A DNA stretch of 64,000 nucleotides, taken from a bacterium. Its GTDB lineage: Bacteria > UBA8248. Both the position numbers and the translations under genes were made by a program. The notes under the pieces are model-generated. The model saw only the letters and a list, made by a program, of their open reading frames with translations, searched no databases and was not told the origin of the DNA. The first letter of the stretch is position 1. Every line of letters starts with the position of its first letter. The stretch covers positions 608,001 to 672,000 of the forward strand of contig OZ253442.1 of the NCBI GenBank assembly GCA_965261085.1. The letters are read 5' to 3'. Below, one piece after another: positions 42,006 through 60,498 of the stretch.

Positions 42006-42022
42006 GGAATCCTGCATCCCTT

Positions 42023-44640: not shown

Positions 44641-45489
44641 TTACGCCACCAAGTCTTTATAGCGGAGCCTCTTGCCGTTCATGCCGAGAACCATGGATTG
44701 CATCTGTTCGATGGTATCCATGGGGCGGAGATTATGGCGTCCTGCAAATTCATTCACATATCGTTGCAGGTGCTTCCGGCTCATGTTGTGATAGACGCCA
44801 TGATACCCTCTTTTGAGCATAGACCAAAATGATTCAATCCCGTTTGTGTGAGCCATGCCGTTTACATACTCTTTGGCGGAATGCCGTACGCTTTCGTGCT
44901 TGTATTCGCCGCCGTACTCATCGCCAAGGTGGACGTAACCCCGATTTTCGTCGGTGAAAAGCGTGGCTCCCGGAACGACATTCTCACGAACAAATTTCTT
45001 GAGAGTCTCGCCTTTTCCATCCTCAAGAACATCGGCCTTCACCCGTCCGGTTTCCCTATCCTTTGCGCCGATGATTCCCGTCTTATTCACGGGGCCGCGC
45101 CCTTCCTTCGTCCGCTTTGACGTGGGCTTGTTTTTCTCAAGGCCACCAATATAGCTTTCGTCAACTTCCGTAGGGCCGGAAAACAATCCGCCGTTTTCCT
45201 GCCACGTCTCCCGGATACGATGCGCCAAGTGCCACGCGCTCTTTTGTGTGATGCCGAGATCGCGGTGCAACTTCATGGATGATACGCCCTTGAGGTTCGT
45301 GGTGGAAAGGTAAATCGCAATCGCCCACTTTTGAAATCCGAGATTAGACCCTTGCATGAGTGTTCCGGTCTTTACCGAAAAATCCTTGCGGCAATCTGAA
45401 CACCAATACGGGAGGGGCTTTTCATTCGGAACAGGAGATACTTTGATGCTTCCGCAATGAGGGTAGTATCGCTCCTGATTAGGCCAGCG
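44641..45489 (-). pseudogene. IS1595-family (ISXO2-like) DDE transposase, 5' truncated
   Basis: EVDESYIGG, TDE, HTNGIESFWS; frame extends upstream as RWPNQERYYPHCGS...WCSDCRKDFSVKTGT (Zn ribbon, first Cys appears as Tyr) with no start codon. Confidence 0.85.
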
Positions 45490-45786: not shown

Positions 45787-46173
45787 CTATTCCGCGCGGA
45801 GGATGCTCCTCGCTTTTTCTCCCTCGGGCGTCACGGCCAGCACCTCGAGACTCGGCCGCGCCGGGCTTCTCGTGAGCAGGAGTTCCACGGGCTCATCCAG
45901 CGCCATGATCTCATGCACTTCTCCGGGCGGGAACTGCACTAGATCGCCGGGCGCGGCCTCTAAGACCTCTCCTTCCACGGCGATGCGGAGACTGCCCTTC
46001 AGGAGATAGAGGAATTGCTCGTCATGGTGATAGTGCGGGTTGGAATGGCCGTTCGCCTCCATGCGGAAAAAACCGATGGTGGTATGGGCGCCATCGACCC
46101 AGGCGGCGTTTGCGGTCACGTAGTCGGCGGCCTTTCCCTGCTCCTGTCCGGCGAGATTTCTGTATATCGGCAT
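45787..46173 (-). CDS. Cupin-domain protein
   Basis: PHYHHDEQ...PPGEVH; GGAG RBS. Confidence 0.8.
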   Translation of the reverse strand: MPIYRNLAGQEQGKAADYVTANAAWVDGAHTTIGFFRMEANGHSNPHYHHDEQFLYLLKGSLRIAVEGEVLEAAPGDLVQFPPGEVHEIMALDEPVELLLTRSPARPSLEVLAVTPEGEKARSILRAE

Positions 46174-46333
46174 GACGTGAACTCCCCTCCATGAGGTGAT
46201 GATCGGTATACGCGGTGTCGGGCGTATTCTAACGGCATGGACTCGCAATCTGTCCAACGCCCATGTATATTTGTTCGACATAATCAATGGCGAGCATATC
46301 CTGCGCTACATAGAGTTTTTCCGGAGGTATTTC

Positions 46334-47368
46334 GTGAGCGCTCCTCCCGTGGATGAGTTCGAATATTTCTTTGAAAAACCCTGGTCGGACGGCCTGCCGG
46401 TCATCCCCCCGACGGAAGAGCGCCTGGGACTCATGCTGGCGGGTACGAGCCGCGCTCCGGACGAAGTCATCGGGGACGTGCCCCCGCTGCTGGCCCAGGC
46501 GGACGTTCGGACGATCGCCGTTCATGCCGTCATGGCCGGATGCAAACCGGAGTATATGCCCGTTCTCATCGGGGCGGTCGAAGCCATTCTGGAAGAAAAA
46601 TTCAATGCGGGAGGCGTGCAGGCGACGCTCTCATGCGCGGCCCCGCTTTTGATCGTGAACGGCCCTTACGCCAGGAAAATCGGCATACACGGCGGGCTCG
46701 GCTGTTTCGGTCCGGGAAATCGCGCAAACGCGACGATTGGCCGCGCCATCAGGCTTTTGCTCCTCAACGTAGGCGGCGGAATACCGGGTATCACCTCGAT
46801 GAGCACGTTTTCACAACCGGGGAGGTTCACGTTCTGCATCGCCGAGAACGAAGAGGAAAGCCCCTGGGAGTCTCTTGCGCTGACGAAGGGTTTTGGCGCG
46901 GACGCGGACGTCGTCACCGTCGTGCATGTGGAAGGCCCCGTCATGGTCTGGGATGACGTGAGTAACGACCCCGAACGAATGTTCCCCTCCATTGCGGACA
47001 CCATGTCGCATTTGGGCGCCTGGAATTGTTGGGCCAGCACCGATTTGGTAGTGGCCATGAGCCCGCAGCAGGCTGCGATTTGCGCGAAGAGGGGGTATTC
47101 CAAGGCGGATGTCCATGGACGCCTTTGTGAAATCGCGGGCCGCACGGTGGGCGAGCTCAAAACGGGAGGGCATTTCAGGGAAAATCGGATCAAGGATTTT
47201 CCGATCCCTGTAGATTTGGAAGATGACGATGCGTTTGTTCCGGCGATAAAAGAGGCCCAGAGACTGCTCTTGATCGTGGCGGGCGGAATTCCGGGGCCGA
47301 TGACGGCCGTGATGCACGGCTGGAACGGCAGTAGCCACTCTGTATCCCGTTCATTTGAATCCTGGTGA
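46334..47368 (+). CDS. Uncharacterised WSDGLPVxxPT-family protein, paralog 1
   Basis: GTG after GGAGG; DEFEYFFEKPWSDGLPVIPPT, HAVMAGCKPEY, IVNGP, GCFGPGNRANATIGRA. Confidence 0.85.
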   Translation: MSAPPVDEFEYFFEKPWSDGLPVIPPTEERLGLMLAGTSRAPDEVIGDVPPLLAQADVRTIAVHAVMAGCKPEYMPVLIGAVEAILEEKFNAGGVQATLSCAAPLLIVNGPYARKIGIHGGLGCFGPGNRANATIGRAIRLLLLNVGGGIPGITSMSTFSQPGRFTFCIAENEEESPWESLALTKGFGADADVVTVVHVEGPVMVWDDVSNDPERMFPSIADTMSHLGAWNCWASTDLVVAMSPQQAAICAKRGYSKADVHGRLCEIAGRTVGELKTGGHFRENRIKDFPIPVDLEDDDAFVPAIKEAQRLLLIVAGGIPGPMTAVMHGWNGSSHSVSRSFESW

Positions 47369-47393
47369 TGCCCGTATATTTCAGGGGAGGTGA

Positions 47394-48428
47394 ATGGTTT
47401 TGAACGATCCTCAAGATGAATTCGAGTTTTTCCTGGAAAAACCCTGGTCGGACGGCTTGCCAGTCGTCACGCCAACGGAAGAGCGCATAGAGCGCATGCT
47501 TTCGGGCACGAAAAGAAGTCCAGGCGAGTTCATAGGTCACGTTCCTCCCGCCATGGGCGAGGCTACGGTCCATAGCGTGGCGGTTCATGCGGTAATGGCC
47601 GGCTGTAAGCCCGAGTATCTGCCGGTCGTTCTCGGCGCTACCTCCCTCATGCTTCGCGATGAGTTCAACATGAACGGCGTGCAGGGTACCATGCATGGTG
47701 TGGCGCCACTGATGATCGTGAATGGCCCTTATTCCGAGCAAATCGGCATTCACGGAGGAAATGGCTGCTTTGGCCCCGGCTTTAGGTCCAACGCTTCCAT
47801 TGGACGAGCCATTCGCCTGATTCTCATGAATCTGGGCGGGGGCATCCCGGGCGTTTCTTCTATGACGATTTTCGGCACGCCGCTTCGCTACACCGCGTGC
47901 ATCACGGAAAACCTTCAGTTTCACCCCTGGGAGACGCTCGCTGAATCCAGAGGATATCGGGCGGATGAAAATGTTATTACCATGGCTATGGTGGAAAGCC
48001 CGCGCCTGACTTTCGATGACGTCAGTGAGGAGCCCGAGCGCCTGCTCCGGGGAATCGCCGATGCGATGACGGGCTTGGGTTCCTGGAACATGCATGCGCC
48101 CAGGACCGACATGGTCGTCGCCATGAACCCCCAGCATGCGAAAATTTGCTTTGACGGCGGTTTTACGCACTCGGACGTGCATCAGCGGCTGTGTGAATTG
48201 GCCGGCCATAAGGTAAAAGATCTGAAACGCGGCGGCAACTGGCGACGCGCGCGCGCGCTGGATATGTATATCCATGTGGATCCCGATGATGATGATTTTT
48301 TTGTCCCCGTCATCAAAGACCCCCGCGATCTCCATTTTATCGTCGCGGGCGGCTGGGGTTCCGGCAGCGCGGTCTGCCATGGGTGGAGTGGTGGCAGCCG
48401 CGCCGTTCATGGGGCCTATGAAGTGTAG
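47394..48428 (+). CDS. Uncharacterised WSDGLPVxxPT-family protein, paralog 2
   Basis: Same motif set; GGAGG RBS. Confidence 0.85.
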   Translation: MVLNDPQDEFEFFLEKPWSDGLPVVTPTEERIERMLSGTKRSPGEFIGHVPPAMGEATVHSVAVHAVMAGCKPEYLPVVLGATSLMLRDEFNMNGVQGTMHGVAPLMIVNGPYSEQIGIHGGNGCFGPGFRSNASIGRAIRLILMNLGGGIPGVSSMTIFGTPLRYTACITENLQFHPWETLAESRGYRADENVITMAMVESPRLTFDDVSEEPERLLRGIADAMTGLGSWNMHAPRTDMVVAMNPQHAKICFDGGFTHSDVHQRLCELAGHKVKDLKRGGNWRRARALDMYIHVDPDDDDFFVPVIKDPRDLHFIVAGGWGSGSAVCHGWSGGSRAVHGAYEV

Positions 48429-48469
48429 CGCCGGAGCGGCCATGACGAACAGAACGAAGTCATATTCCT

Positions 48470-49486
48470 ATGGATGAATTTGAGTTTTTCTTCCAAAAAC
48501 CCTGGTCGGATGGTCTTCCGGTAATCCCCCCTACCCAAGAGCGAATGGACGCGATGCTCTCGGGCACGAGACTTGAAAAGTCAGATACCATTGGTTTGGT
48601 GCCGCCCCTCATGGGTCAGGCGAGCGTAGGCGCGATTGCCGCACACGCCGTAATGGCGGGGTGTGAGCCTTCGTTTTTGCCCGTCGTTATTTCAGGCCTC
48701 CAGGCGCTCCTTGCACCAAAACTCAACTTAAACGGCGTGCAGGGCACAATGCACAGCGCGGCCCCTTTGATTATCGTGAACGGGCCTTATGCGAGAAAAA
48801 TCGGTCTGCACGGAGGCACAGGGTGTTTTGGGCCGGGTTTTCGGGCGAATGCGACGATCGGACGCGCTATCAGGCTCATTCTCATGAACTTGGGCGGAGG
48901 TGTGCCGATTTCCGCCTCGATGAGCACGTTCGGCTCACCTGCCAGATATACATTTTGTATTGCCGAGAATGAAGCGGAAAGCCCTTGGGAGCCATTTTCC
49001 GTCACGAGAGGATTTCTTCAGGATGACGATGTTGTAACCGCCGTGATGACGGAAGCGCCCCAAGGGTATATTGATGATTATTCCAAGGAGCCAGAATCTT
49101 TTTTCGTGGGTCTGGCGGATAAAATATCCACATTAGGCTCGCTGAATATATGGCTTAAGACCCAGGTCGTTGTCGCTTTGGGCCCGGATCATGCGCGTAT
49201 GTGTGCGGAAGCGGGCCTTGATAAAGGAGATGTTCATCGCCGGATAGTTGAACTTGCATGCAGGCCTCTCGGAGAACTCAAGAGATCGGGCTATTGGCGC
49301 GAAAATATGATGGCCAAATGGCCATTTGATATCGACCCGCAGGATGATTCGGTTATGGTACCGGCGATTAAGGATGAAGATGATCTGTTGCTTGTTGTTG
49401 CAGGAGGCACCCCCGGGCCGGTAACGGCCGTCATGCCCGGCTGGGTGGATGGGAGTGAGGCGGTCTCGACGGATTATCAACCATAA
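48470..49486 (+). CDS. Uncharacterised WSDGLPVxxPT-family protein, paralog 3
   Basis: Same motif set. Confidence 0.85.
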   Translation: MDEFEFFFQKPWSDGLPVIPPTQERMDAMLSGTRLEKSDTIGLVPPLMGQASVGAIAAHAVMAGCEPSFLPVVISGLQALLAPKLNLNGVQGTMHSAAPLIIVNGPYARKIGLHGGTGCFGPGFRANATIGRAIRLILMNLGGGVPISASMSTFGSPARYTFCIAENEAESPWEPFSVTRGFLQDDDVVTAVMTEAPQGYIDDYSKEPESFFVGLADKISTLGSLNIWLKTQVVVALGPDHARMCAEAGLDKGDVHRRIVELACRPLGELKRSGYWRENMMAKWPFDIDPQDDSVMVPAIKDEDDLLLVVAGGTPGPVTAVMPGWVDGSEAVSTDYQP

Positions 49487-49521
49487 GCGCTTCAGTCGGG
49501 ATAATATTTGAGGATGAACGT

Positions 49522-50541
49522 ATGGATGAATTCGAGTTTTTCCTGGGAAAAGAATGGTCAGATGGCTTGCCTGTCGTGACGCCGACGGAAGAGAGAATCG
49601 GTTTGATGCTCTCTGGAACCAGAAGGGAGTCGGGCGAAGTAATCGGCCATGTAGCTCCGGCTGGGGGCGAGCTCAGCATACAAACCATGGCAACGCATGC
49701 CGTGATGGCGGGATGTAAGCCTGAATACATGCCAGTGTTGATAGCAGGACTGGAAGCGCTTCTTGATGAGCGGTTTAACGTAAATCTGATTCAGGCCACA
49801 ACGAGCGCGGGCGCACCATTTTTGTTGGTCAATGGCCCCTACGCCAAGGAAATCGGACTACACGGGGGAGTGGGCTGCATGGGCCCCGGCTTTCGCGCAA
49901 ATCTGACTATTGGCCGCGCCGTGAGGCTCATCATGATGAATGTGGGAGGAGGAATTCCCGGAGTCACCTGCCTCGGTGGATTTGGAGGTCCTTGGCGAAA
50001 CACTTTTTGCATCATGGAGAACGAGGAGGAATCGCCTTGGGAGTCGTATGCAGAGTCCAAAGGGTTTTCAAAAAACGATAATGTGGTGACAATGATTCCC
50101 CTCGAAGGGCCCGTTCAGGTATGGGACGATGCGAGCCTGACTCCCGATAGGCTTCTTACGACGATTGCCGATATGATGTCCGCATTGGGTGGGCCCAACA
50201 TGTATCGGCAAGCGGACATGTCGGTTGTCCTGGGCGCGCAACATGCGCATCTTTGCGCTGACGCCGGGCTGACCCGTAGCGATGTCCATCAAAAGTTACT
50301 AGAAATGGGAGGGAGAACTATTGGGGATATAAAGCGCGGCGGCATCTGGCGAGGTGAGAAAGGCGCAGATCGCTGGCCGTTTCCCGTGGATGTGAATGAT
50401 GATGATTTTTTTGTGCCTGCGGTAGGTGATCCCGACGATCTTCATTTGATCGTCGCAGGAAGCAGAGGTTCACCCTCGAGCATGGTCATGCACGGAATTA
50501 CCGTGGCGTGCCGAGCCGTGATAAAAAAATTTAGTGTGTGA
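49522..50541 (+). CDS. Uncharacterised WSDGLPVxxPT-family protein, paralog 4
   Basis: Same motif set (GCMGPG variant). Confidence 0.85.
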   Translation: MDEFEFFLGKEWSDGLPVVTPTEERIGLMLSGTRRESGEVIGHVAPAGGELSIQTMATHAVMAGCKPEYMPVLIAGLEALLDERFNVNLIQATTSAGAPFLLVNGPYAKEIGLHGGVGCMGPGFRANLTIGRAVRLIMMNVGGGIPGVTCLGGFGGPWRNTFCIMENEEESPWESYAESKGFSKNDNVVTMIPLEGPVQVWDDASLTPDRLLTTIADMMSALGGPNMYRQADMSVVLGAQHAHLCADAGLTRSDVHQKLLEMGGRTIGDIKRGGIWRGEKGADRWPFPVDVNDDDFFVPAVGDPDDLHLIVAGSRGSPSSMVMHGITVACRAVIKKFSV

Positions 50542-50629
50542 AATAGCTTGATGGCGTGACAAAATCTCATGTGCCACTTGTTCGTATAAGCCTTTGTGAA
50601 GCTAGTAATGGTTTGGTGTTTTTCTGAAG

Positions 50630-50662
50630 AAAAAAGCCCCGGCAGCTTGCCGGGGCTTTTTT
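50630..50662. terminator. Bidirectional intrinsic terminator
   Basis: A6-GCCCCGGCA-GCT-TGCCGGGGC-T6 between convergent genes. Confidence 0.88.
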
Positions 50663-50677
50663 GTGATTGATCGCCAG

Positions 50678-52939
50678 TTAATGGCCGTTGCTTTTACCGT
50701 TTTTCTTCATGACCGCCCAGCAGACTCGCTCAGGCGTGATGGGAAGGTCGTAAACTTCCGTGCCTATCGCATCGTTGATGGCGAGGGCGACGGCGGCTGG
50801 CGCATTATTACATGGTGGTTCTCCGACGCCCCGCGCACCATATGGACCCGCGCCTTCTCCACATTCGAGAACGACAGACTCAAACTCGCCAATATCCGAG
50901 GAGGTGGGAATCAGGTACTCGTGAAAACTCTGTGATCGGCAATCTCCTTCCACCATGGTGATTTCCTCGTGCAGAGCGTAGCCAATCCCCATCACCGCGC
51001 CCCCTTCAAATTGCCCCTCCACGCTTTGAGGGTTTAGCGCTCGCCCGACATCATGGGTGGCGACATGCTTCAAGAGATTCACTTCGCCAGTTTCGACATC
51101 AACTTCCACTTCGCTTGCATGAACGCCAAAGGTGTAGTCCGCCCATCCGCCCATGCCGTTCATGTATCGTTCCGGATTCTCATATTCGTGCCCCGGCATG
51201 TTGTAGCCATGCGTGCAATGGAGTGACTCGCCCATTTGCTTGGCTTCGCCCGCCGCGGCTCCGATGGTCACTCTCCTCTCGGGAGAGGAGGCCACCCACG
51301 CTTCGCCGCCAGCGATGCGAATGTCTTCCTCCGCAGCCTCAAGCAACGATGCGGCACCTTTTGTGACAGCTTTTCGAACCTCGTCTGCTGCAAGCCGAAC
51401 GGCGTGCCCCGCCATAAGCGTTTGGCGGGAGCCTGCAGTGATGCCCGAAAGCGGCGTAGTGGCGGAATCGGACAAGCGGGTGGAAACTTGGTTGAGCCTG
51501 AGCCCCAGGGTTTCAGCCGTGATGCTTTGAAGCGTAGCGCCCTGCCCTGCCCCAATATCTGGTGCGCTCACACGGACCACGGCACTGCCGTCCGGCTCGA
51601 GGTGAACGGCTGCATTCGCATCGTCACTCGGCCTTCCGTAGCCGGTAATATTCGCAGCCGCCGCCCGGCCAATGCGCTTGCCAGGGCCTGGTTTAGCGGG
51701 TTCGCCCAGGGCCTTAAGCGCGCTATCGAGGCATCCTTCCAGGTTTGGTTCATAAGGAATTTTCTGCCCAGTCGGCAGTTCTTGTCCTTTCTGAATGAAA
51801 TTTTTTCGCCTGAATTCGTATTTGTCCATGCCGATGGCGTCTGCGACCAGGTTCATTTGATTTTCATAAGCGAAGCAAACCTGGTTCGACCCAACACCGC
51901 GCATTGCGTTGGTGATGGGGTTATTGGTGAGGTAGCCGTGCGCGCGAATTTTCACGTGGGAAACGTCATATGGGCCTGCGGCGATGCACATCGCGCCCAA
52001 GAGGAACAAATTGGATTTATATGGATAGGCGCCTGCGTCGCCTACGATATCCGCTTGCACGGCCAGGATTTTCCCGTCCTTGGTGGCTCCCGTTTTGTAC
52101 TTCATATAAAAAGGATGCTTTTTCGAGGTGTTTCTAATGCCATGCTCGCGCCCCAGCACCATCACGGCCGACCTTCGAGTATGCCAGGTGAGTAGAGCAA
52201 GGTAGGGTTCTACGGTCAGCATGCCCTTGGCGCCGAATCCCCCGCCGACATAAGTGCCAAGGTGACGAACGCGGCTCTGAGAAATCCCCAAAATCGCCGC
52301 TATGGCGCGATAATATTCGATAAGCTGCGTGCCGACGCGAATGGTAATAACGCCGTCTTCTTCCATCCAGGAAGTGCCGGATGCGGGTTCCAGGAATGCG
52401 TGTTCGGCAAGTTGCGTGGTGTATGTTTTCTCAATCACCACATCGGCTTCGTCAAACGCGGTTTTTATGTCTCCACGGATAACCTCGAAATCACACGCCT
52501 GTCGTTTCTCGGCGCTCGTTTCATCATGACGCGTTGTCCACACCCCTTCTTCTGCTTCGATTTCCACCTCGATGGCCGAGATGGCGGCATCAAGCGCTTC
52601 CCTGGTCTCAGCGCCTACGATTGCAAGGGCGTCTCCCGTAAATTCGATTTTATCTTCCACCAGCACTGGCTGATGTGGCAGGCCCGGCGTGCCGGAGCCG
52701 TATCGAACGTTCGTGCCGGGAATGTCCTTTGCGGTCAGAATGGCGGCTACGCCTGGAATTTTTTCAGCTATTGAAGTGTCGAGTTTTTTCAAACGGCCTA
52801 CGGGGACGGGCGTAAATAATACGCCGCACTGCAAAGCGCCTGCGGGGATCGCGTCTTCTCCGTAGGGCATGGAACCATCCGCTTTCGGAATAGAATCATA
52901 TCGGACGTTCGATTTGCCGATGATATCGTAATCGGGCAT
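50678..52939 (-). CDS. Xanthine dehydrogenase-family molybdopterin-binding subunit
   Basis: EHAFLEP, VGGGFGAKG, AMRGVG, DIGAG, GSRQT, GQFEGG, RGVGEPP, LPITPERV. Confidence 0.92.
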   Translation of the reverse strand: MPDYDIIGKSNVRYDSIPKADGSMPYGEDAIPAGALQCGVLFTPVPVGRLKKLDTSIAEKIPGVAAILTAKDIPGTNVRYGSGTPGLPHQPVLVEDKIEFTGDALAIVGAETREALDAAISAIEVEIEAEEGVWTTRHDETSAEKRQACDFEVIRGDIKTAFDEADVVIEKTYTTQLAEHAFLEPASGTSWMEEDGVITIRVGTQLIEYYRAIAAILGISQSRVRHLGTYVGGGFGAKGMLTVEPYLALLTWHTRRSAVMVLGREHGIRNTSKKHPFYMKYKTGATKDGKILAVQADIVGDAGAYPYKSNLFLLGAMCIAAGPYDVSHVKIRAHGYLTNNPITNAMRGVGSNQVCFAYENQMNLVADAIGMDKYEFRRKNFIQKGQELPTGQKIPYEPNLEGCLDSALKALGEPAKPGPGKRIGRAAAANITGYGRPSDDANAAVHLEPDGSAVVRVSAPDIGAGQGATLQSITAETLGLRLNQVSTRLSDSATTPLSGITAGSRQTLMAGHAVRLAADEVRKAVTKGAASLLEAAEEDIRIAGGEAWVASSPERRVTIGAAAGEAKQMGESLHCTHGYNMPGHEYENPERYMNGMGGWADYTFGVHASEVEVDVETGEVNLLKHVATHDVGRALNPQSVEGQFEGGAVMGIGYALHEEITMVEGDCRSQSFHEYLIPTSSDIGEFESVVLECGEGAGPYGARGVGEPPCNNAPAAVALAINDAIGTEVYDLPITPERVCWAVMKKNGKSNGH

Positions 52940-53067
52940 TTGTTTACTCCTTAAGGATAGAGAATTCCCATGAATTGGACTTGATTTTGCCAAAATTCGA
53001 CGAATCTGAGAAGCGGGCGAAAAGAATCATTCATGTTTTCGAGAAAAAATCGAATCGATGGATATCG

Positions 53068-53096
53068 TAGACAAGGAGTGATTTGCGAGATATGAT
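53068..53096 (+). promoter_or_regulatory. Putative sigma70 promoter of the UGSC operon
   Basis: TAGACA-N17-TATGAT. Confidence 0.55.
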
Positions 53097-53135
53097 TTAG
53101 ACACGGGTGAATTCACATATTATATGGAGAAAACC

Positions 53136-53666
53136 ATGGCGAACGGAATGGGATTTATCGACCCGACGGCGGGTGGCTCGGCTGCGCGAATCGAGCTTGC
53201 GCAACGGCCCGACGATCTTTCTGGAAAAGTGGTGGGCCTCCTCGATAACACCAAAGAACAAGCAGATATTATTTTAGAAACTCTGGGGAATGCTCTGCGC
53301 GAGCAATACGATGTGGCCAGAGTCGTCTCGCTGCGCAAGGAGCATTACTCGAAACCCGCCACGGATGAAATGATCGAAGAAATGGCCCAGGAGGTGGATG
53401 TGGCGATTGCCGCATTGGGCGGCTGAGGCTCCTGCACGTTGTGCAGTGTGCACGACACCGTTGAATTTGAAAAACGTGGCATTCCTTCAACGACCATCAT
53501 CACCGAGGCATTCAAGAACGCGGCGGACTTTCAATTCCGTGGCAAAGGCATGGAAGGCCACCCGTATGTGCAGTTGCCTCACCCAGTCAGTAATTTACAG
53601 CCCGAAGAAATGCGGGAGACTACGCTCAAGTTTGTCGAAGAAGTGGCCAGCCATCTGAAAAGCTGA
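53136..53666 (+). CDS. UGSC-family selenoprotein, in-frame UGA at 53424-53426
   Basis: LSGKVVGLLDNTK...AIAALGG-U-GSCTLCSVHDTVEFEKRGIP...LPHPV; the two track ORFs are in frame; hairpin GTTGTGCA-GTG-TGCACGAC 53438-53456. Confidence 0.9.
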
Positions 53667-53705
53667 TCCGAGTCGAAGCGAAAAGGTATTTTCCAGGAGG
53701 GGTAT

Positions 53706-54488
53706 GTGCGCGAATTTGAAACGATATCTTATTCGGAAGAAGATGGATTGGCGTTAGTGAAGCTCAACCGCCCGGAGAGCCTGAATGCGGTCAGCTTCAA
53801 GATGGCGGAAGAATTCGTGGAATTGGCGCGAACCTTGGCCGACGCACAGAAAGTGCGTGTAGTTATCCTCACTGGAGAGGGACGCTCTTTCAGTACGGGT
53901 CGAGACTTGAAAGAAAGCGCTACGCATACGAAGGAGATGGCTGATCAGTACCAGCGTCATGTGATGGTGACGACGACATTATGGGAGCGTTTACCCATGC
54001 CCACCATCGCCGCCATCAATGGTCACGCGTTTGGCTGGGGTGTGGAAATTACATTGGGATGCGACATCAGGCTGGCTGCGGAAGAGGCCACTCTTTGTCT
54101 GCCGGAATGCAGCTTGGGTATTTTCCCTGGGGCTGGCGGGGTGGTCAGGCTCCAAAGAATCATGCCGGCTGGCCAGGCGAAAGAGCTGGTTTTCACGAGC
54201 AAGCGAATCGATGGAATAGAAGCCGAGCGCATCGGTTTGGTGAACAAGGCACATCCGCGTGACAGTCTCATGAACGAAGCGACGGCCATGGCGGAAACGA
54301 TAAGAGACAATGGCCCTCTGGGAGTTCGCGGGGCAAAGAAAGTAATCGACCAAACACTCGATATGCCGCTCGCTCAGGCTGTAGAGTTTTCCAACGCCCT
54401 CAGGTTGCCGTTGAATCACACCAAAGATTTCGCCGAAGCGCTGGCGGCGTTCAAAGAGAAGAGGAAACCCAATTTTACAGGAGAATAA
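53706..54488 (+). CDS. Enoyl-CoA hydratase/isomerase (crotonase)
   Basis: LNRPESLNA, PTIAAING.AFGWGVE, CDIR, PECSLGIFPGAGG. Confidence 0.9.
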   Translation: MREFETISYSEEDGLALVKLNRPESLNAVSFKMAEEFVELARTLADAQKVRVVILTGEGRSFSTGRDLKESATHTKEMADQYQRHVMVTTTLWERLPMPTIAAINGHAFGWGVEITLGCDIRLAAEEATLCLPECSLGIFPGAGGVVRLQRIMPAGQAKELVFTSKRIDGIEAERIGLVNKAHPRDSLMNEATAMAETIRDNGPLGVRGAKKVIDQTLDMPLAQAVEFSNALRLPLNHTKDFAEALAAFKEKRKPNFTGE

Positions 54489-54517
54489 AAGTCGTCAAAA
54501 TTTTGCATGAACTACCG

Positions 54518-54545
54518 AGCCTGTCCTCCTGAGGATGGGCTTTTT
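54518..54545 (+). terminator. Possible internal terminator/attenuator
   Basis: AGCCTGTCCTC/GAGGATGGGCT stem followed by a T-run. Confidence 0.55.
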
Positions 54546-54562
54546 GTTCATTGGGACGGAAA

Positions 54563-55264
54563 ATGAATCAAGACCTGCTTATCACACATATTGAATCCAA
54601 TATCGCAAGCATCACAGTGAATCGCCCGGAAACGCGAAATGCGTTCAACACGCCATTGATGAAGGCCATGTGTATGGTGATGGCTGAAATTAAGGCCAAG
54701 CGGGATGTTAAAGTTCTTATAGTGACGGGCGCAGGAAGTTCTTTTTCTTCAGGCCGCGATCTGAAAGAAAGCACCACCCATACAAAAGAGCAAGCCAAGA
54801 GTTTCATGATGTTGGGTGAGAGATGGAGTACGACTCTCCGTGAATTGCCTGTTCCCACGATAGCCGCGGTGAACGGCCCCGCCTTCGGGTGGGGAATGGT
54901 GTTGATGCTCGCATGTGACATTCGTATTGCGGTGAATGATGCAATTTTGGGATATCCAGAGACCGCGTTGGGAGTATTTCCGGGAGCAGATGCCACCGTT
55001 CGTCTGACCCGACAGATTTTTGTGCCATCTGCAAAAGATTTGGTGCTCACCGGCAGAAGGTTTGATGCGCAAGAGGGATATCGCTTAGGATTGTTGAATC
55101 GGATCACTTCTAAGAGAGAATTGAGGGCGGAAACTGACGCTCTGGCTGGTGAAATTGCCCAAAATCCGCTGGAAAGACTAAAAGCGATGAAATCAACATT
55201 TGTGAAAGTTGAAATGATGCCGCGTTTTGGACATTTATCGGTGGCCGAGAAACTCGAACGATGA
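54563..55264 (+). CDS. Enoyl-CoA hydratase/isomerase paralog (shorter C-terminus)
   Basis: VNRPETRNA, GRDLKESTTHTKE shared with the upstream gene, PETALGVFPG. Confidence 0.85.
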   Translation: MNQDLLITHIESNIASITVNRPETRNAFNTPLMKAMCMVMAEIKAKRDVKVLIVTGAGSSFSSGRDLKESTTHTKEQAKSFMMLGERWSTTLRELPVPTIAAVNGPAFGWGMVLMLACDIRIAVNDAILGYPETALGVFPGADATVRLTRQIFVPSAKDLVLTGRRFDAQEGYRLGLLNRITSKRELRAETDALAGEIAQNPLERLKAMKSTFVKVEMMPRFGHLSVAEKLER

Positions 55265-55641
55265 AAGTCCGGGAGTGTTTTTTGCAGGCGGTAGCGATTG
55301 TTGGAGCGGAGGAAGACGCCAGAGAGGCATGGACGGCTATGAACAGGATAAATGCACCTTGGGCCGCGATTTTTAATGAGAAACGCTTGGTGGGGATCTT
55401 AAATAAAAGCGACATTGATGCGGTTATTCGTGTGCCCGAGGTTTTTCAAATAGTGGGGGAGATTGCCGAGAAGGGAATGCCTGCGAGGCGAGGAATGTCT
55501 TTGTCTCCAAACATGGATTTGAACGAGGCTGCTCTTCAACTCGAAATGGCGAGAACGGATGCCGCTTTAGTCGAAGGTGTTGGCAGACCACCTGGCGTTA
55601 TTGAAATGGATGCAGCCAATCGCGCATTGTTATTTACTTAA
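55261..55641 (+). CDS. Degenerate CBS-domain-like protein
   Basis: MKVREC..., RLVGILNKSDI, SPNMDLNEAA; ATGA overlap with upstream gene. Confidence 0.55.
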   Translation: MKVRECFLQAVAIVGAEEDAREAWTAMNRINAPWAAIFNEKRLVGILNKSDIDAVIRVPEVFQIVGEIAEKGMPARRGMSLSPNMDLNEAALQLEMARTDAALVEGVGRPPGVIEMDAANRALLFT

Positions 55642-55719
55642 TGATGCGCTTTTTGTTTTCCTTGAAGCTAGCCGAATCATTGCCTCGCTTTCGGGGAATG
55701 ATTAGCGGGAGGGGTATAG

Positions 55720-56916
55720 ATGGAATTCACATTAAGTGAAGATCAGTTGCGGATTCAGCAAATAGCCAGAAAATTTTCCTATGAAGAACTGGCCCCGGTG
55801 GCCCCCGAACGCGATCGGATTCAGAATTGGGAAGAGCGGATGCCGTGGGACTTGACGGAAAAAGCAAGCGCTTTGGGCCTCCGGCAACTGCCTTATCCGA
55901 AAGAATATGGCGGCATGGACGCCGATGTGCTTTCGTGTTGCCTGGCGGGGGAAGAGCTTGCCGTGGGTGATCTGGGTTTTGCGGTAAATCTGGATCAGAC
56001 CTGGAAGCTGTCTCATATCCTCGAAATAGTTGAGCCTGAACTCAGAGACCCCTGGATAAAACGCTTGTGTGAAGAACCAAGATTCCTGGTTGCGATTTCC
56101 ATGACGGAAGAAGGAGCGGGAAGCGATCACCAAGGATATTATGACGATCCCTCCATCGCGCTTTATGCGCGTGCGGAGAAAAAAAATGGCAAATGGATCA
56201 TCAATGGGAAAAAGCGCTACATCAGCAACGGCCCTGTGGCATCATTGTACGTTTTAGCGGCGAGAACTGATCTCAGCAAAAACCTAAGAGAAAGTTTAAC
56301 TGGTTTTCTGGTTCCGAGAGACACTCCTGGCGTATCGATCGGCCATGTGCATGAAAAAATTGGTCAACGTCTTTCGATGAATTCGGAAATCTTTTACGAA
56401 AATGTCGAAATTCCAGAGAACCACGTTATCTTAGGTGAAGGAAGCATGTTTGAAATCAGGGGCAATCTCCTGGCGATGGGCAAACCAGAAGCAGCCGCCA
56501 CAGTTCTGGGTGTCGGACGCGCCGCATTCGAAAAAGCCCTTGATTACAGCCGAAAACGTGTTCAGGGAGGCAAGCCCATCGCCCAGCATCAGGCGATAGA
56601 AACCATGCTCGCTGATATGGCGATGAATCTGGATATCGCGCGCACCTACATTTGGCGCACTGCCTGGGCGGTGGATCATCAAAAACCCTATGATTTCACG
56701 CAAGGATGGAAGTGCAAGGTTTTTGCATCGGAGGTTGCCTTTGACTGCGCGCGTCTGGGGATGGAGATATTTGGAGGAGCGGGCATTATGCACGACGCTC
56801 CCATGGAGAAATATCTTCGTGATGCCAGCACATTTTTGCATTCAGACGGCACGAATCAAGTCTTGCGGTTGAGAACGGCCCAGGCCTATGTGAAAGGCTT
56901 AGCCACGGCGTTTTAG
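55720..56916 (+). CDS. Acyl-CoA dehydrogenase-family flavoprotein
   Basis: MTEEGAGSD, WIINGKKRYISNG, RVQGGKPI..HQAI, GGAGIM, EKYLRDA. Confidence 0.92.
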   Translation: MEFTLSEDQLRIQQIARKFSYEELAPVAPERDRIQNWEERMPWDLTEKASALGLRQLPYPKEYGGMDADVLSCCLAGEELAVGDLGFAVNLDQTWKLSHILEIVEPELRDPWIKRLCEEPRFLVAISMTEEGAGSDHQGYYDDPSIALYARAEKKNGKWIINGKKRYISNGPVASLYVLAARTDLSKNLRESLTGFLVPRDTPGVSIGHVHEKIGQRLSMNSEIFYENVEIPENHVILGEGSMFEIRGNLLAMGKPEAAATVLGVGRAAFEKALDYSRKRVQGGKPIAQHQAIETMLADMAMNLDIARTYIWRTAWAVDHQKPYDFTQGWKCKVFASEVAFDCARLGMEIFGGAGIMHDAPMEKYLRDASTFLHSDGTNQVLRLRTAQAYVKGLATAF

Positions 56917-56939
56917 CGACACCGAAAGAGGTATTCGAG

Positions 56940-57491
56940 ATGATGGGTCGGTTGGATGGCTGGCGGCAAGGTGAATTATTCCTTCAAGACGGAGAATCGC
57001 TAAAACATCATGTTGCTGACTGGCTGAAGAAAGTGCGCTCGGAATTCTCGGTTTTTATGTCGGATGAGGGCATTGCGGAAATAAGAATGTTGAATGGCGT
57101 GGAGAAGCCTCTCGCGGCTGATCATGCGAGTGAACAATCAACGCCTTTGAGTCGTCGAGCCTCAAAGGAAATAGAAGAGTACCTGAGAGGCACTCGCCAA
57201 AGTTTCAAACTGAAAACAGACCTCTCCATTCTCACGCCTTTTATGGAAAAGGTACTCAGGGAGACAGAAAAAATTCCTTATGGAGAGACACGCTCCTACG
57301 GCTGGGTGGCGAAGCAGATCGGCAACCTGAAAGCTTCACGCGCCGTTGGACAGGCGCTGCATAGAAATCCCGTTCCCCTTGTAATACCCTGACATCGGGT
57401 CATCGCGAGTTCGGGTGAACTCGGTGGATTCGCTAGCAGCGTGTCGCTCAAGGCGGCACTCTTAGTCCATGAGAGGAGTCATAAAAATTAG
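56940..57491 (+). CDS. ogt: Methylated-DNA-protein-(seleno)cysteine methyltransferase, in-frame UGA at 57390-57392
   Basis: [42 protein letters not shown]...K..LL.HE to TAG 57491; hairpin CGAGTTC-GGGT-GAACTCG 57406-57423. Confidence 0.88.
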
Positions 57492-57541
57492 GGCACGCGG
57501 ATTTCGCTTGGTGGCATCCAGGAAATATCGGAGGATGAAAA

Positions 57542-58117
57542 ATGTCAAAACAGATGAATGATTTTGTCGATCATGTACGTCAAATTGTAAAAACAGGTGG
57601 CTCCGAAGAAGAAATAACCGCCCGCGTAGCGGCGAGCCTCGATCCGATTCTCAGTGACCCGGACTTGTTGAGTGATGATCAACTCTTGGTGAAACAAGAA
57701 GGATTTACGCTCAACCAGATTCATATCGAGCCGGATGAGAATTTCTCCATAGGTGCCGGCATATGGGATGTAGGACAGACTACTCCGATTCACGATCATG
57801 GTACTTGGGGCGTGATAGGCATTTACCGTGGAATGGAGAACGAAGAGAGTTTTTTGCGTGAAGGTCCCCGGGAAAACGGGGCCCGTGTAAATCTTACACC
57901 CCAAGGCAAACGCTTGGCCGGGCCCGGAGATGTCTTTGTCTGCTGCACAAAGGACAATGACGTGCACCGAGTGAGTTGTGCTTCGTCTGAACCCGTGGTG
58001 GGTGTCCATGTCTATGGTGGTAATCTCGCCAAGATAGCGCGTTTTAAGTACGAAGAATTAACCGGCGAAGTGAAATCGTTTAATACAGGGTGGGATTATG
58101 CGAAAAACTCTGCTTGA
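57542..58117 (+). CDS. Cysteine dioxygenase-family (thiol dioxygenase-like) cupin
   Basis: W..GQTTPIHDHGTWG, DVHRV, GVHVYG. Confidence 0.8.
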   Translation: MSKQMNDFVDHVRQIVKTGGSEEEITARVAASLDPILSDPDLLSDDQLLVKQEGFTLNQIHIEPDENFSIGAGIWDVGQTTPIHDHGTWGVIGIYRGMENEESFLREGPRENGARVNLTPQGKRLAGPGDVFVCCTKDNDVHRVSCASSEPVVGVHVYGGNLAKIARFKYEELTGEVKSFNTGWDYAKNSA

Positions 58118-59077: not shown

Positions 59078-59818
59078 ATGTCGAAGAACGTGCATTGGAA
59101 AAAACAATTGAATTCAATTCACCTGATCCTGTTCGATGTAGATGGAACGCTGCTTCTAAGCGGAGGCGCAGGGGCAAGAGCGTTGAATATCGCTTTTGAG
59201 CACATATACAGGATACCCAACGCGATGCGTCATGTTGAGCCGCACGGCAAGACGGATGAACTCATCGTACAGGAAATGTTTCATTCTCACCTTGGACGTT
59301 GCGGGAGCGAGTTTGAGATGAAAGTTCTTTTGGAGAAATATCTAGAAATCTTACCCGGCACAGTTATGGATTCCAAGAACTTTCATCTGATGCCGGGAAT
59401 CCCAGATTTGCTTTCGTATCTGAAGAGTCGAGAAGACGTATTCATGGGGTTGGGGACGGGAAATATCGAGGAGGGTGCGCGAATCAAACTCTCGCGTGGT
59501 GGGCTGAATCAGTTTTTTTCGTTCGGAGGGTTCGGATCCGATTCTGGAGACAGGGCGGAATTGCTGGAAGCAGGATTTCTGCGAGGCGAGGCGATCATTC
59601 AAAAGGAATTCCCGCGTAGATCCATTTCTCGTTGGGTGATAGGCGATACATGGCGCGATGTAACGGCGGGTCGCGCATGTGGAGCGAAGACGATGGCTGT
59701 GGCTACCGGCGGTGATTCTCTTTATGAGTTGGCGAACGCCTCTCCGGATTTTCTTTTTGCCACTTTGGAGGATAAGGAGAGGTTTTGTGAAATTTTGGAT
59801 GTGGGTGTTAGAGCATGA
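59078..59818 (+). CDS. HAD-family hydrolase
   Basis: LFDVDGTL, TGN, GGFGSD, VIGDTWRD. Confidence 0.88.
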   Translation: MSKNVHWKKQLNSIHLILFDVDGTLLLSGGAGARALNIAFEHIYRIPNAMRHVEPHGKTDELIVQEMFHSHLGRCGSEFEMKVLLEKYLEILPGTVMDSKNFHLMPGIPDLLSYLKSREDVFMGLGTGNIEEGARIKLSRGGLNQFFSFGGFGSDSGDRAELLEAGFLRGEAIIQKEFPRRSISRWVIGDTWRDVTAGRACGAKTMAVATGGDSLYELANASPDFLFATLEDKERFCEILDVGVRA

Positions 59819-60498
59819 GCGAATCGTTGTATCCGGTTACGCCAAGTGAAATTTCCCATGTCTATCGGCTAATCCCCACATGGACGAAAGGAGAACTCGC
59901 GGATTTATCCGAGCCGCAATTGGAAAGAACAGGTACGCAAGAATGGGCGCGTTGGTCTCCAAGGAGGCAGCTTAGCCACATGGCCTACATCACGACGAGG
60001 TGGTTCATGGTTCTCTACGGTGCCACTCGCCTACCCTGGTCGACTGTAGATATGAGTCAGTTCAGCACGTTTATCAATACGCGGGATGATGATCGTCGTT
60101 TTTCCTCGGAACGATACGGGAATATCGAGTGGTTACATTTGCGGTTTTCCGAGGCATGCGAAGCAGCGGCGGCTCAAATTGAAAAGAGGGTGGGAGAGAA
60201 TTTAGCGAATAAATCGTTGTTGTTCGTATTTACGGAATCATCTGTCGTGGGTGTGAGTGAGGAACGTTCGGTTGATTTGTGGAATCGCTGCAAGGAATGC
60301 CATCCAGATGGATTAACGATTGATTCTGACCACGCACATGGATTTCGAATGACACCTTCGGCGACTTTGCGTCATGTGCTCTGGGACGATTTGATTCACT
60401 TGCGCTCCATCAGGCTTCATCGTGAAGCCTTGGGCTTGTCGCCTGTTTATCCCGATGTTCCCGTGGGCGGTTATGCCTCCGCGTATCCAGTTTCTTGA
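59815..60498 (+). CDS. DinB-superfamily protein
   Basis: WSPRRQLSHMA...LRHVLWDDLIHLRSI (His triad). Confidence 0.7.
   Translation: MSESLYPVTPSEISHVYRLIPTWTKGELADLSEPQLERTGTQEWARWSPRRQLSHMAYITTRWFMVLYGATRLPWSTVDMSQFSTFINTRDDDRRFSSERYGNIEWLHLRFSEACEAAAAQIEKRVGENLANKSLLFVFTESSVVGVSEERSVDLWNRCKECHPDGLTIDSDHAHGFRMTPSATLRHVLWDDLIHLRSIRLHREALGLSPVYPDVPVGGYASAYPVS

Follow-up and report, generated by a model that had tools for sequence, protein, structure and literature searches.

Described systems close to the locus analysed here include the Grd/Prd enzymes, the reductases of glycine, sarcosine, betaine and D-proline, where selenoprotein B (GrdB/F/H, PrdB) works with the proproteins GrdE/G/I and PrdA. 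In these enzymes a selenocysteine (Sec) subunit is combined with a substrate-specific subunit and reduction is driven by a thiol or thioredoxin. MsrA/B and ArsC, which are thioredoxin-dependent reductases, rely on a catalytic Cys, a second thiol or selenol to resolve it and thioredoxin for recycling, and the catabolism of 3-mercaptopropionate and dithiodipropionate employs the thiol dioxygenase Mdo and a 3-sulfinopropionyl-CoA desulfinase of the acyl-CoA dehydrogenase (ACAD) family. The "UGSC-containing protein" of Zhang and Gladyshev was described as a major aquatic selenoprotein family, with 255 Sec sequences in 37 samples and 21 Cys homologues (PMC2398784). The available text of that 2008 paper mentions a "UGSC/Unknown_1" fusion, in which Unknown_1 is possibly par, and this remark is the only one found in the literature on a UGSC-partner pair (PMC2398784); in the available part of a 2026 review, UGSC is still among the uncharacterised families (PMC13188914).

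Organisation of the locus

The window, a 64,000-nucleotide stretch of bacterial DNA, contains four paralogs of the WSDGLPV/MAGC family, here called par, and a UGSC gene in the following arrangement (positions are those of the window):

45787 to 46287, minus strand: Cupin_2 protein, divergent from par1 (Pfam Cupin_2, 7.2e-15)
46334 to 47368, plus strand: par1, 344 aa, WSDGLPV/MAGC family, lineage-specific clade
47394 to 48428, plus strand: par2, 344 aa, clade adjoining the UGSC orthologue elsewhere
48470 to 49486, plus strand: par3, 338 aa, lineage-specific clade
49522 to 50541, plus strand: par4, 339 aa, Nitrospinota clade
50678 to 52993, minus strand: Mo-hydroxylase large subunit, convergent on par4 (Pfam)
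53068 to 53096, plus strand: sigma-70-like match TAGACA-17-TATGAT, 28 nt before the start of UGSC
53124 to 53666, plus strand: UGSC selenoprotein, 180 aa, motif GG-U-GSCTLCS (Pfam and NCBIfam)
53424 to 53426, plus strand: TGA read as Sec, UGSC residue 101 (alignment of orthologues)
53706 to 54488, plus strand: crotonase/enoyl-CoA hydratase 1, ECH1 (Pfam, NCBIfam, synteny)
54551 to 55264, plus strand: crotonase 2, C-terminally shorter (Pfam)
55261 to 55641, plus strand: CBS-like protein, 126 aa (Pfam CBS, marginal)
55720 to 56916, plus strand: ACAD family protein (Pfam and NCBIfam)
56940 to 57491, plus strand: Sec-Ogt alkyltransferase, P-U-HRV acceptor, TGA at 57390 to 57392
57542 to 58117, plus strand: thiol-dioxygenase-like cupin (phmmer against the PDB)

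A preliminary description of this region had recorded the four tandem paralogs of about 340 residues, the convergent Mo-hydroxylase gene and the run from the UGSC selenoprotein through two crotonases, a CBS-like protein, an ACAD and Sec-Ogt to a thiol-dioxygenase-like cupin; these observations were confirmed, and its interpretation is partly supported. The par genes are four same-strand ORFs separated by 25-41 nt, a spacing that suggests one operon, and GGAGG lies 6 nt upstream of the GTG start of par1 (46334). The paralogs are 55-57% identical to par1, with WSDGLPV..PT and HAVMAGC invariant across all four, and yielded no match at E<=0.01 in a Pfam and NCBIfam profile search; par is a very large, unnamed protein family. 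The Mo gene has three Mo-hydroxylase large-subunit domains and is closest, among solved structures, to nicotinate dehydrogenase (3hrd) and 4-hydroxybenzoyl-CoA reductase (1rm6), with no Fe-S or FAD subunit gene beside it and all Fer2_2 genes of the genome outside the window. ECH1 starts 39 nt past the UGSC stop at 53666 (47 nt past 53658), crotonase 2 matches positions 2-207 of a 251-position profile, and the CBS-like protein reaches 25.1 bits in Pfam (cut-off 24) and has no match in NCBIfam. The TGA of Sec-Ogt is kept in three related loci (L026, L029 and L047), and the Cupin_2 gene is syntenic in every Nitrospinota locus reaching that far, distant ones included (42-49% identity). The sigma-70-like site is the best such match in the region, as a match to consensus only, the number of sites being not above that in shuffles. 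Contigs from RNA libraries of two studies cover pieces of every gene, although RNA contigs can contain DNA.

The UGSC selenoprotein

The UGSC protein of the window carries the U-G-S-C motif and exceeds the curated cut-offs of both family models, PF24696 (175 bits, cut-off 25) and NF041046 (149.5 bits, cut-off 125), and is a member of the family. Its coding sequence ends at 53666, correcting 53658, and its Sec codon and stop codon are both TGA. TGA stands at the Sec position in 61 of 63 alignment rows of orthologues from other records, the exceptions being a secondary partial alignment (L069) and a 1.6-kb contig (L036), so the in-frame TGA did not arise by a sequencing accident. The motif is readable in 61 orthologues, all with Sec and none with Cys; RNA-library contigs retain the TGA, and tRNA-Sec, SelA and SelB are present in the genome of the window. 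This genome holds eight UGSC copies, all with TGA. One of them reads U-G-S-S, without the second Cys, and some fused UGSC domains have neither Sec nor Cys at the motif, so a redox-active pair is not universal. An AF2 model of UGSC (pLDDT 90.8) is flavodoxin-like, whereas a thioredoxin-like fold has been supposed in the available literature text. The model places the UxxC motif at the N-terminus of a helix, which is likewise the position of the motif in redox-active sites.

Pairing of par with UGSC

UGSC is a near-constant partner of par across bacteria. In the genome of the window, seven of the eight UGSC genes directly adjoin a par gene, one of the seven as a fusion; three of the 15 par genes lack a UGSC within 8 kb. 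Of 51 genomes of the phylum, 43 have both families and the other eight have neither, and a sample of the order Burkholderiales has both families in the same six of 81 genomes (75 with neither), where a par match is found within 500 bp of 72 of the 76 UGSC matches. A survey of orthologues of the window's own pair covered 79 related loci: at 37 the UGSC orthologue is beside a par2-type gene, 35 of these having a gap of 13-255 bp, another 24 show the window arrangement with the Mo gene between par and UGSC, and at 18 UGSC was not seen, 10 of these stopping at a contig end. The adjacency and fusion of the two families that had been stated in the preliminary description thus occur elsewhere, and a genome-by-genome check bore out their co-occurrence. 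Given this near-constant partnership, the product of the locus is probably a selenium enzyme made of two parts.

On a phylogenetic tree, only par2 joins the clade whose members in other organisms are separated by 13-255 bp from the orthologue of this UGSC. This clade lies directly beside the UGSC orthologue in Betaproteobacteria and Chloroflexota, which makes par2 the likely cognate partner of the window's UGSC, and par1, par3 and par4 are lineage-specific copies. An AF2 model of par2 (pLDDT 83.5) places Cys71 between two helices. A fold search gave no clear solved relative of par; the weak best matches include class I fumarate hydratase (E 1e-3, TM 0.29) and a PrpD-like iminodisuccinate epimerase (Z 4.1).

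Fusions and predicted docking

PF24696 is present in 45 of 71 long par proteins, and other domains found on such proteins are AhpC/Redoxin (two), Thioredoxin_8 (one), a thioredoxin-reductase-like domain (one) and a ferredoxin-thioredoxin-reductase (FTR) beta domain (one). A complex of UGSC with par is predicted for P0191, a natural Cys-type fusion from another organism, whose two domains, and not the window's own pair, were the query. The domains docked with an ipSAE of 0.79 in three of three runs (best of three controls 0.00), a mark reached by 58 of 80 solved complexes and two of 110 mismatched pairs, and the runs had at least 81% of contacts in common and a partner pLDDT of at least 79. On the UGSC side the predicted interface comprises Cys97-Trp103, which is the CGSC loop, and residues 6-16; on the par side it comprises PPT-E (216-220), 239-248, 251-258, 284-291 and 336-338. 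The 251-258 segment ends just ahead of the invariant Cys261, a residue missing from the list of confident contacts, and a search of solved structures found no like complex.

Proposed mechanism

The thioredoxin-type fusions of par suggest a thiol/selenol reductase with carboxylates or acyl-CoAs as substrates. UGSC and par may form one two-component enzyme that would act as a reductase, a reading given a probability of about 0.5, in which the reductase role draws on the fusion partners and on analogy. The par subunit would contribute the substrate site together with a single invariant cysteine (Cys71 in par2), and UGSC would be a small flavodoxin-like module that docks on the most conserved surface of par via its N-terminal peptide and presents the U-G-S-C loop there. 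In this scheme the selenol/thiol pair would resolve an oxidised state, or an adduct derived from the substrate, at the interface, leaving an Se-S bond for a thioredoxin-type system to reduce again. Small carboxylates or their CoA thioesters would serve as substrates, with a different specificity for each paralog; the one UGSC gene of the window would have par2 as its ancestral cognate, and par1, par3 and par4, which keep the docking motifs, would probably depend on that UGSC too. The product, perhaps a thiol-bearing acid, would be handled by the crotonases, ACAD and thiol dioxygenase of the UGSC operon. The proposed logic is like that of MsrA/B and ArsC and fits the Trx-fold, TrxR-like and FTR-beta fusions, but the resolving selenol would lie on a separate, dedicated subunit; profile and fold searches showed no sequence or fold relation to these reductases.

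Neighbouring genes and substrate

The units in the genome of the window stand in eight quite different contexts, including ACADx2-UGSC-par, CoA-transferase III-crotonase-UGSC-par and par-UGSC-CoA-transferase III, which point to carboxylate or acyl-CoA substrates. The only recurrent neighbour is the TctC solute receptor, which accounts for 19 of the 108 nearest ORFs and is matched at 44 of 60 loci, although TctC genes are very numerous in Burkholderiales anyway. The operon of the window resembles 3-mercaptopropionate catabolism in its Mdo homologue, its crotonases and its ACAD, for which the desulfinase model is one of the matches. The cupin matches solved 3-mercaptopropionate dioxygenases (6xb9, E 1.5e-21; 3uss, 2.3e-20), with a Pfam CDO_I match below cut-off, and the ACAD scores 165.7 bits against NF042439 (cut-off 600), fifth among ACAD models. 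Unlike that pathway, the operon has no CoA ligase or transferase, and the tie of these genes to par and UGSC is one of gene context. The dioxygenase homologue gives no more than a hint of an organosulfur substrate, and the cleavage of C-S or C-N bonds of onium or organosulfur compounds, as proposed in the preliminary description, is not established, the evidence on substrate being that of gene context.

It is quite possible, at somewhat under even odds, that only par and UGSC are coupled and that the Mo enzyme, crotonases, ACAD, Sec-Ogt and cupin are lineage-specific neighbours rather than parts of one pathway. These genes are absent beside par2-UGSC at the 37 Betaproteobacterial, Chloroflexota and other loci and were not found at 60 units of six other genomes. 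The varied contexts above and terminator-like hairpins 3' of ECH1 and of the CBS gene point the same way. Against the wider set proposed in the preliminary description, the Mo enzyme, crotonases, Ogt and cupin do not accompany the pair outside Nitrospinota and Tectomicrobia, the only groups with the Mo gene between par and UGSC. Within these groups, however, the order par..Mo(-), UGSC, ECH1, CBS, Ogt, cupin recurs in L029 (a distant Nitrospinota) and L047 (Tectomicrobia) at 47-79% protein identity, and ECH1 accompanies UGSC in distant Nitrospinota and in Tectomicrobia. The plus-strand run is also tightly spaced, and RNA-library contigs bridge par1/par2, UGSC/ECH1, ACAD/Ogt and Ogt/cupin, which is no proof of a single transcript.

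Role of the four paralogs

The preliminary description had envisaged one Sec subunit shared by four interchangeable paralogs. Cys71 and the predicted UGSC-interface motifs are retained in all four and sharing is therefore possible, but only par2 lies in the UGSC-adjoining clade. The existence of par-par tandem fusions (seven of the best 150 representative clusters exceed 620 aa, and six of the eight longest par proteins checked have two MAGC motifs) raises a rival, doubtful on balance, in which the paralogs are not interchangeable and form a hetero-oligomer, as pairs or as a tetramer, with one kind of UGSC bound to it. The close spacing of the par genes agrees with this, all 21 close relatives and also distant Nitrospinota have the four genes in this order, and Betaproteobacteria usually have two tandem par genes per UGSC that form two sister sub-clades. 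Chloroflexota, however, have one par gene per UGSC, so one par suffices, and the retention of Cys71 and the docking motifs in all four copies of the window differs from some halves of par-par fusions, in which DGLP is lost.

Redox chemistry and relation to Grd/Prd

An unlikely alternative to a reductase is a redox-neutral enzyme acting on carboxylates (isomerase, racemase, lyase or decarboxylase), with Sec and Cys71 as nucleophile or acid-base pair in a composite site. Units often stand alone with a solute receptor and no reductant-supplying gene, redox residues are missing in some fused UGSC domains, and the weak fold matches of par are carboxylate-handling enzymes. Such chemistry sits poorly, however, with thioredoxin-fold, thioredoxin-reductase-like and FTR-beta domains on par at the usual place of UGSC, with the UxxC motif at a helix N-terminus and with Sec, never Cys, in all orthologues with a readable motif.

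Like the proposed par-UGSC enzyme, Grd/Prd has two components. The resemblance of the Sec segment to GrdB/PrdB noted in the preliminary description was recovered as a weak signal with Sec aligned to Sec (TIGR01917, E 1e-3; hhalign E 4.7e-4, probability 33%). GrdB/F/H, PrdB and UGSC share the segment U-G-[ST]-x-T...LE..GIPT...HP, and this appears to be all that GrdB/PrdB and UGSC have in common; GrdB has a 347-position GRDB domain ahead of Sec that UGSC lacks. Kinship of the partner subunits was not detected, profile comparison of par giving a probability of 0.1% with the GrdE/PrdA-like protein and 1.4% with the N-terminal part of GrdB. Judging by record titles, the hosts of par-UGSC include nitrite-oxidiser relatives, Burkholderiales and SAR202-type Chloroflexota, not amino-acid fermenters. 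A true GrdB/PrdB-type reductase, in which par is cleaved at Gly-Cys71 to give a pyruvoyl group that binds an amine and Sec cleaves C-N, is very improbable, because par is unlike GrdE/PrdA, Cys71 lies between two helices in a confident uncleaved-chain model and nothing among the tests favours self-cleavage or a pyruvoyl group, although the Sec segments align, some units in the genome of the window lie amid peptidase, aminotransferase and dipeptide-transporter genes, and two canonical pairs of a GrdE/PrdA-like with a GrdB/PrdB-like protein occur in that genome as well.

Gene content of the locus

The genome carrying the window is a single contig of 4.27 Mb, and its closest relatives are metagenome-assembled genomes (MAGs) labelled Nitrospinota or Nitrospinaceae. 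The locus opens with four tandem paralogs of an unnamed family of ~340-aa proteins, here called par, which are met by a convergent gene for a Mo-hydroxylase large subunit (the Mo gene). Past the Mo gene lies a divergent, tight plus-strand series encoding UGSC, a selenocysteine (Sec) protein named for its U-G-S-C motif, two crotonases, a marginal CBS protein, an acyl-CoA dehydrogenase (ACAD), an Ogt-type alkyltransferase and a cupin. ORFs and profile matches confirmed this gene set, in which the preliminary description had listed the four paralogs, the Mo gene, UGSC and the downstream genes.

Features of the locus (window coordinates)
46334-47368, plus strand, par1; GTG start 6 nt past GGAGG
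47394-48428, plus strand, par2
48470-49486, plus strand, par3
49522-50541, plus strand, par4
50678-52993, minus strand, Mo-hydroxylase large subunit, convergent on par4; Ald_Xan_dh_C, MoCoBD_1 and MoCoBD_2 domains
53124-53666, plus strand, UGSC, 180 aa, with corrected end; Sec is residue 101 (TGA at 53424-53426)
54551-55264, plus strand, crotonase 2, C-terminally short
55720-56916, plus strand, ACAD with S-D-G-T at the expected Glu motif
56940-57491, plus strand, Ogt-type alkyltransferase; P-U-HRV, with TGA at the acceptor residue

The par genes are separated by gaps of 25-41 nt. The products of par2 to par4 share 55-57% identity with that of par1, and the four have a mean column identity of 71% and the invariant blocks WSDGLPV..PT, HAVMAGC, NGPY, IGRA.RL and N.GGG. 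The Mo gene has the large-subunit domains of xanthine-dehydrogenase-type molybdenum hydroxylases, Pfam families Ald_Xan_dh_C (E 6.6e-16), MoCoBD_1 (E 7.6e-65) and MoCoBD_2 (E 4.6e-65), and the nearest solved relative of its product is nicotinate dehydrogenase 3hrd, a selenium-containing enzyme. No Fe-S or FAD subunit gene lies beside it, its immediate neighbours being par4 and UGSC, and the whole genome encodes ten Mo large-subunit paralogs versus only four Fer2_2 matches, none of the four inside the window.

By eye, crotonase 2 appears to lack the first of the two catalytic Glu residues, both of which crotonase 1 retains. The S-D-G-T of the ACAD presumably stands where medium-chain ACADs have Y-E-G-T, which contains their catalytic Glu. 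The alkyltransferase scores 101.7 bits against TIGR00589 (cut-off 46.4) and E 8.3e-31 against PF01035; the same TGA is found in Tectomicrobia and in a distant Nitrospinota record, in each case within the UGSC operon, and a Sec form of the Ogt/MGMT family is listed in a recent review (PMC13188914). A second Ogt-like copy of the ordinary type is encoded elsewhere in the genome. The cupin is similar to solved 3-mercaptopropionate/cysteine dioxygenases over residues 4-186 (phmmer, E 1.5e-21 to 4.3e-19); it reaches 17.4 bits against Pfam CDO_I, below the cut-off of 23, and has no NCBIfam match.

Around the locus, six ORFs of 128-293 aa (40536-41417, 41481-42017, 42613-43158, 43467-43853 and, past the operon, 59815-61001) are candidate genes without a Pfam match, and five of them (all but 43467-43853) have no NCBIfam match either. 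A bicupin at 39648-40526 matches Pfam DMSP_lyase with 31.3 bits, above the cut-off of 27, and an IS1595-family transposase at 44641-45357 precedes by 0.4 kb the cluster formed by a divergent Cupin_2 gene and the par genes.

UGSC and par occur as a pair

UGSC has been catalogued since the mid-2000s. It ranked among the most abundant selenoprotein families of the Global Ocean Sampling data, with 255 Sec sequences in 37 samples, and a "UGSC/Unknown_1" fusion was noted in 2008 (PMC2398784); in the part of a 2026 review drawn on here, the family is listed without a function (PMC13188914). Literature searches on UGSC and on Nitrospinota selenoproteins yielded neither a functional assignment nor a description of the partner family.

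The par family is the near-obligate partner of UGSC. The genome of the window contains 15 par and eight UGSC copies (tblastn); par directly adjoins seven of the eight UGSC genes, and the eighth, that of the window, lies 2.6 kb from par4. All eight UGSC copies contain the TGA; one of them is fused to par in a protein of 535 aa. Across the phylum sample, both families are present in the same 43 of 51 genomes and neither is present in the other eight. A sample of the order of a Burkholderiales MAG, in which one sub-threshold UGSC match was set aside, has both families in the same six of 81 genomes and neither in 75. In these six genomes, 72 of 76 UGSC matches have a par match within 500 bp and 73 of 86 par matches have a UGSC match within 500 bp; one of them (G117) has at least 26 matches for par and at least 26 for UGSC, and 24 of the latter exceed the cut-off and have a single TGA each. 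The gene-neighbourhood and co-occurrence check proposed earlier therefore finds the families pairing up genome by genome, and chance co-occurrence is unlikely, since the distribution is patchy in the Burkholderiales-order sample, though related genomes are not independent.

Clustered at 50% identity, the par family comprises 7,949 clusters at E<=1e-3, of which 2,462 reach E<=1e-30. The preliminary description had such proteins often adjacent or fused to UGSC, and this proved correct, since 45 of the 71 best-scoring par representatives longer than 400 aa carry a UGSC domain. A few long representatives carry instead an AhpC/Redoxin, Thioredoxin_8, pyridine-nucleotide disulfide reductase or ferredoxin-thioredoxin reductase beta domain. 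In an alignment of fusions (A5), six proteins (P0143, P0158, P0202, P0223, P0253 and P0260) have a UGSC-like N-terminal domain without Sec or Cys at the motif, and in three others (P0205, P0222 and P0237) the N-terminal domain is of another type, two of these domains containing CxxC.

With par as its partner, a 20-year-old "unknown selenoprotein" becomes a testable two-protein enzyme. The partner family is named by no family database and is without a clear solved fold.

Par2 is the probable cognate partner of UGSC in the window

The pair in the window was compared across 79 related loci. The order seen in the window, in which the Mo gene separates par from UGSC, is repeated in 24 loci, 21 of which belong to close relatives; the remaining three include a distant Nitrospinota locus (L029) and a Tectomicrobia locus (L047), both of which keep par, a minus-strand Mo gene, UGSC, crotonase 1, the CBS protein, Ogt and the cupin at 47-79% identity. 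In 37 loci, from Betaproteobacteria, Chloroflexota and others, the UGSC orthologue (59-78% identity) adjoins a par2-type gene (67-76%); 35 of these loci have gaps of 13-255 bp between the two genes, and two tandem par genes are frequent. No UGSC is seen in 18 loci. Ten of these break off where their contig ends, another four are orthologous to an orphan copy, and neither applies to the last four.

On a quick maximum-likelihood tree, par2 groups with those Chloroflexota, proteobacterial and Tectomicrobia genes in a clade with SH-aLRT support of 100%, and par1, par3 and par4 form separate Nitrospinota clades. Taken together, the tree and the locus comparison suggest that par2 is the ancestral cognate of UGSC in the window, that par1, par3 and par4 are probably lineage-specific additions, and that the Mo gene was apparently inserted into an otherwise adjacent par-UGSC pair. 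With one UGSC and four partner paralogs, the locus is a natural experiment whose context proposes concrete substrates.

Selenocysteine in UGSC

UGSC scores above both curated cut-offs, with 175.1 bits against PF24696 (cut-off 25) and 149.5 bits against NF041046 (cut-off 125), and its in-frame TGA lies in the motif GG-U-GSCTLCS. Of 63 alignment rows of UGSC orthologues, 61 have this TGA, and no Cys form was seen among them, a strict retention of Sec that the partnership with par would explain. The genome encodes tRNA-Sec, SelA and SelB. A small hairpin begins 7 nt past the UGA of the UGSC mRNA; the 60-nt fold is comparable to shuffles (z +0.52), the corresponding SECIS fold of Ogt has z -1.79, and neither clearly stands out. 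One UGSC copy elsewhere in the genome (L005:8424-9029) has U-G-S-S and so lacks the second Cys of UxxC.

Relationship to glycine, betaine and proline reductases

The preliminary description had likened UGSC to selenoprotein B (GrdB/PrdB) of the glycine, betaine and proline reductases (Grd/Prd). The likeness holds for the Sec segment: residues 80-171 of UGSC align to positions 325-413 of the GrdB model TIGR01917 (E 1e-3, 18.1 bits versus a cut-off of 602), and the UGSC profile aligns Sec on Sec with a GrdB/PrdB-like protein of the same genome over 62 columns (hhalign, E 4.7e-4, probability 33%). These weak but consistent matches suggest that the two Sec segments are homologous. The likeness does not extend to the rest of the protein or to its partner. 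In GrdB/PrdB a GRDB domain of ~350 residues precedes the Sec, whereas the 180-aa UGSC has no match to PF07355 (GRDB). The Grd/Prd partner is a GrdE/PrdA-type proprotein that forms a pyruvoyl group, whereas par aligns with a GrdE/PrdA-like protein at a probability of only 0.1%, and with a GrdB-like protein at 1.4%, in hhalign comparisons whose single-sequence templates limit sensitivity. From the match of the Sec segment and the negative results for par, UGSC appears to share the Sec module of selenoprotein B and to have a different protein as its partner.

Two canonical pairs of GrdE/PrdA-like and GrdB/PrdB-like genes are present in the same genome, at G000:C1:1204587-1208621 (L090) and 2148155-2152192 (L089). 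The Sec motif of their GrdB/PrdB-like proteins is U-G-[ST]-G-T, which lacks the Cys of UxxC.

Predicted structures and interface

Par has no clear relative in sequence or structure databases. None of the 15 par copies of the genome matches Pfam at E<=0.01, none of the four window paralogs matches NCBIfam, and par has no match below E 0.18 among PDB sequences. The par2 model is confident (pLDDT 83.5, pTM 0.86) and without a clear solved relative; Foldseek ranks class I fumarate hydratase first (E 1e-3, TM 0.29), and VIA-align reaches a Z of 5.5 at best. PDB sequence searches with par, UGSC and the GrdB-like protein returned nothing useful, including no solved complex resembling par-UGSC, and the ESM Atlas returned for par only the family itself and its UGSC fusions.

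The AF2 model of UGSC (pLDDT 90.8) is a flavodoxin-like, five-stranded beta-alpha repeat whose third helix has the Sec at its N-terminal end. Receiver domains and flavodoxins rank highest among its Foldseek matches (TM 0.4-0.5). A thioredoxin fold had been proposed for UGSC (PMC2398784); it is rejected here on the beta-alpha repeat of the model, with no thioredoxin among the Foldseek matches listed.

Docking was performed on the two domains of P0191, a natural Cys-type fusion, rather than on the pair in the window, using an alignment of 21 fusions. The domains scored 0.79 in all three runs and the best of three controls scored 0.00. Of 80 solved complexes 58 attain the mark of 0.79, as do 2 of 110 mismatched pairs, a calibration that is only rough because our own alignment was used. 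The runs share at least 81% of their contacts, with a partner pLDDT of at least 79. To the predicted interface UGSC contributes its CGSC loop (97-103) and residues 6-16, a conserved peptide at the N-terminus. Par contributes PPT-E, Q.TT, N.GG and the segment leading up to the invariant Cys; these are the most conserved motifs of par and are kept in all four window paralogs. The invariant Cys itself (Cys71 in par2) is not in the list of confident contacts.

Genomic context, expression and proposed chemistry

The par/UGSC units of the genome occur in eight settings: two ACADs with UGSC-par; a TRAP permease and CoA-transferase III with a crotonase and UGSC-par; par-UGSC with CoA-transferase III, dienelactone hydrolase, FAA hydrolase and an aminotransferase; luciferase-like oxygenases; M20 and M24 peptidases with a dipeptide transporter; S15 peptidases; a 2-oxoacid dehydrogenase with an HpcH-type lyase; and an AhpD-like protein. 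In the six Burkholderiales-order genomes (60 units), the TctC solute receptor is the only recurrent nearest neighbour, at 19 of 108 ORFs, although TctC genes are very numerous in Burkholderiales; a TctC match is present in 44 of the 60 loci. A recurrent neighbour family of "unknown 381-aa" proteins was discarded as antisense ORFs over TctC genes, which makes the count of 19 an underestimate; the simple ORF caller is unreliable in high-GC loci.

Par and UGSC may together form a radiating enzyme that catabolises imported carboxylates or the corresponding CoA esters. The enzyme would be a thiol/selenol-driven reductase, because thioredoxin-type fusions occupy the position on par that is usual for UGSC. 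In this window the product could be a mercapto-acid, and the context of a co-operonic thiol dioxygenase homologue hints at one, in line with the organosulfur substrates proposed in the preliminary description. In its full form, to which we give a probability of roughly 0.3, this reading holds that par and UGSC would constitute an undescribed selenium-dependent enzyme class, in which a catalytic subunit of unsolved fold is served by a dedicated mini-selenoprotein as a detachable active-site/redox arm, and which has radiated to dozens of substrate-specific copies per genome for reductive carbon-heteroatom cleavage of imported carboxylates in aerobic or microaerobic bacteria. Here, four par subunits that set the specificity would share a single UGSC and a C-S bond would be cleaved, the mercapto-acid then being oxidised by the co-operonic thiol dioxygenase.

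A promoter and terminator scan of the locus found sites no more numerous than in shuffles. In two studies, RNA-library contigs match parts of every gene and span several of the junctions, which lends weak support to expression of the locus. Some RNA-library runs do not cover parts of the locus and three sponge-metagenome RNA runs contain next to none of the sampled words, neither of which is evidence of silence.

One orphan par copy of the genome (L001:9888-10277) has no UGSC within 8 kb; an AhpD/CMD-family gene lies two ORFs upstream and may encode an alternative redox partner.
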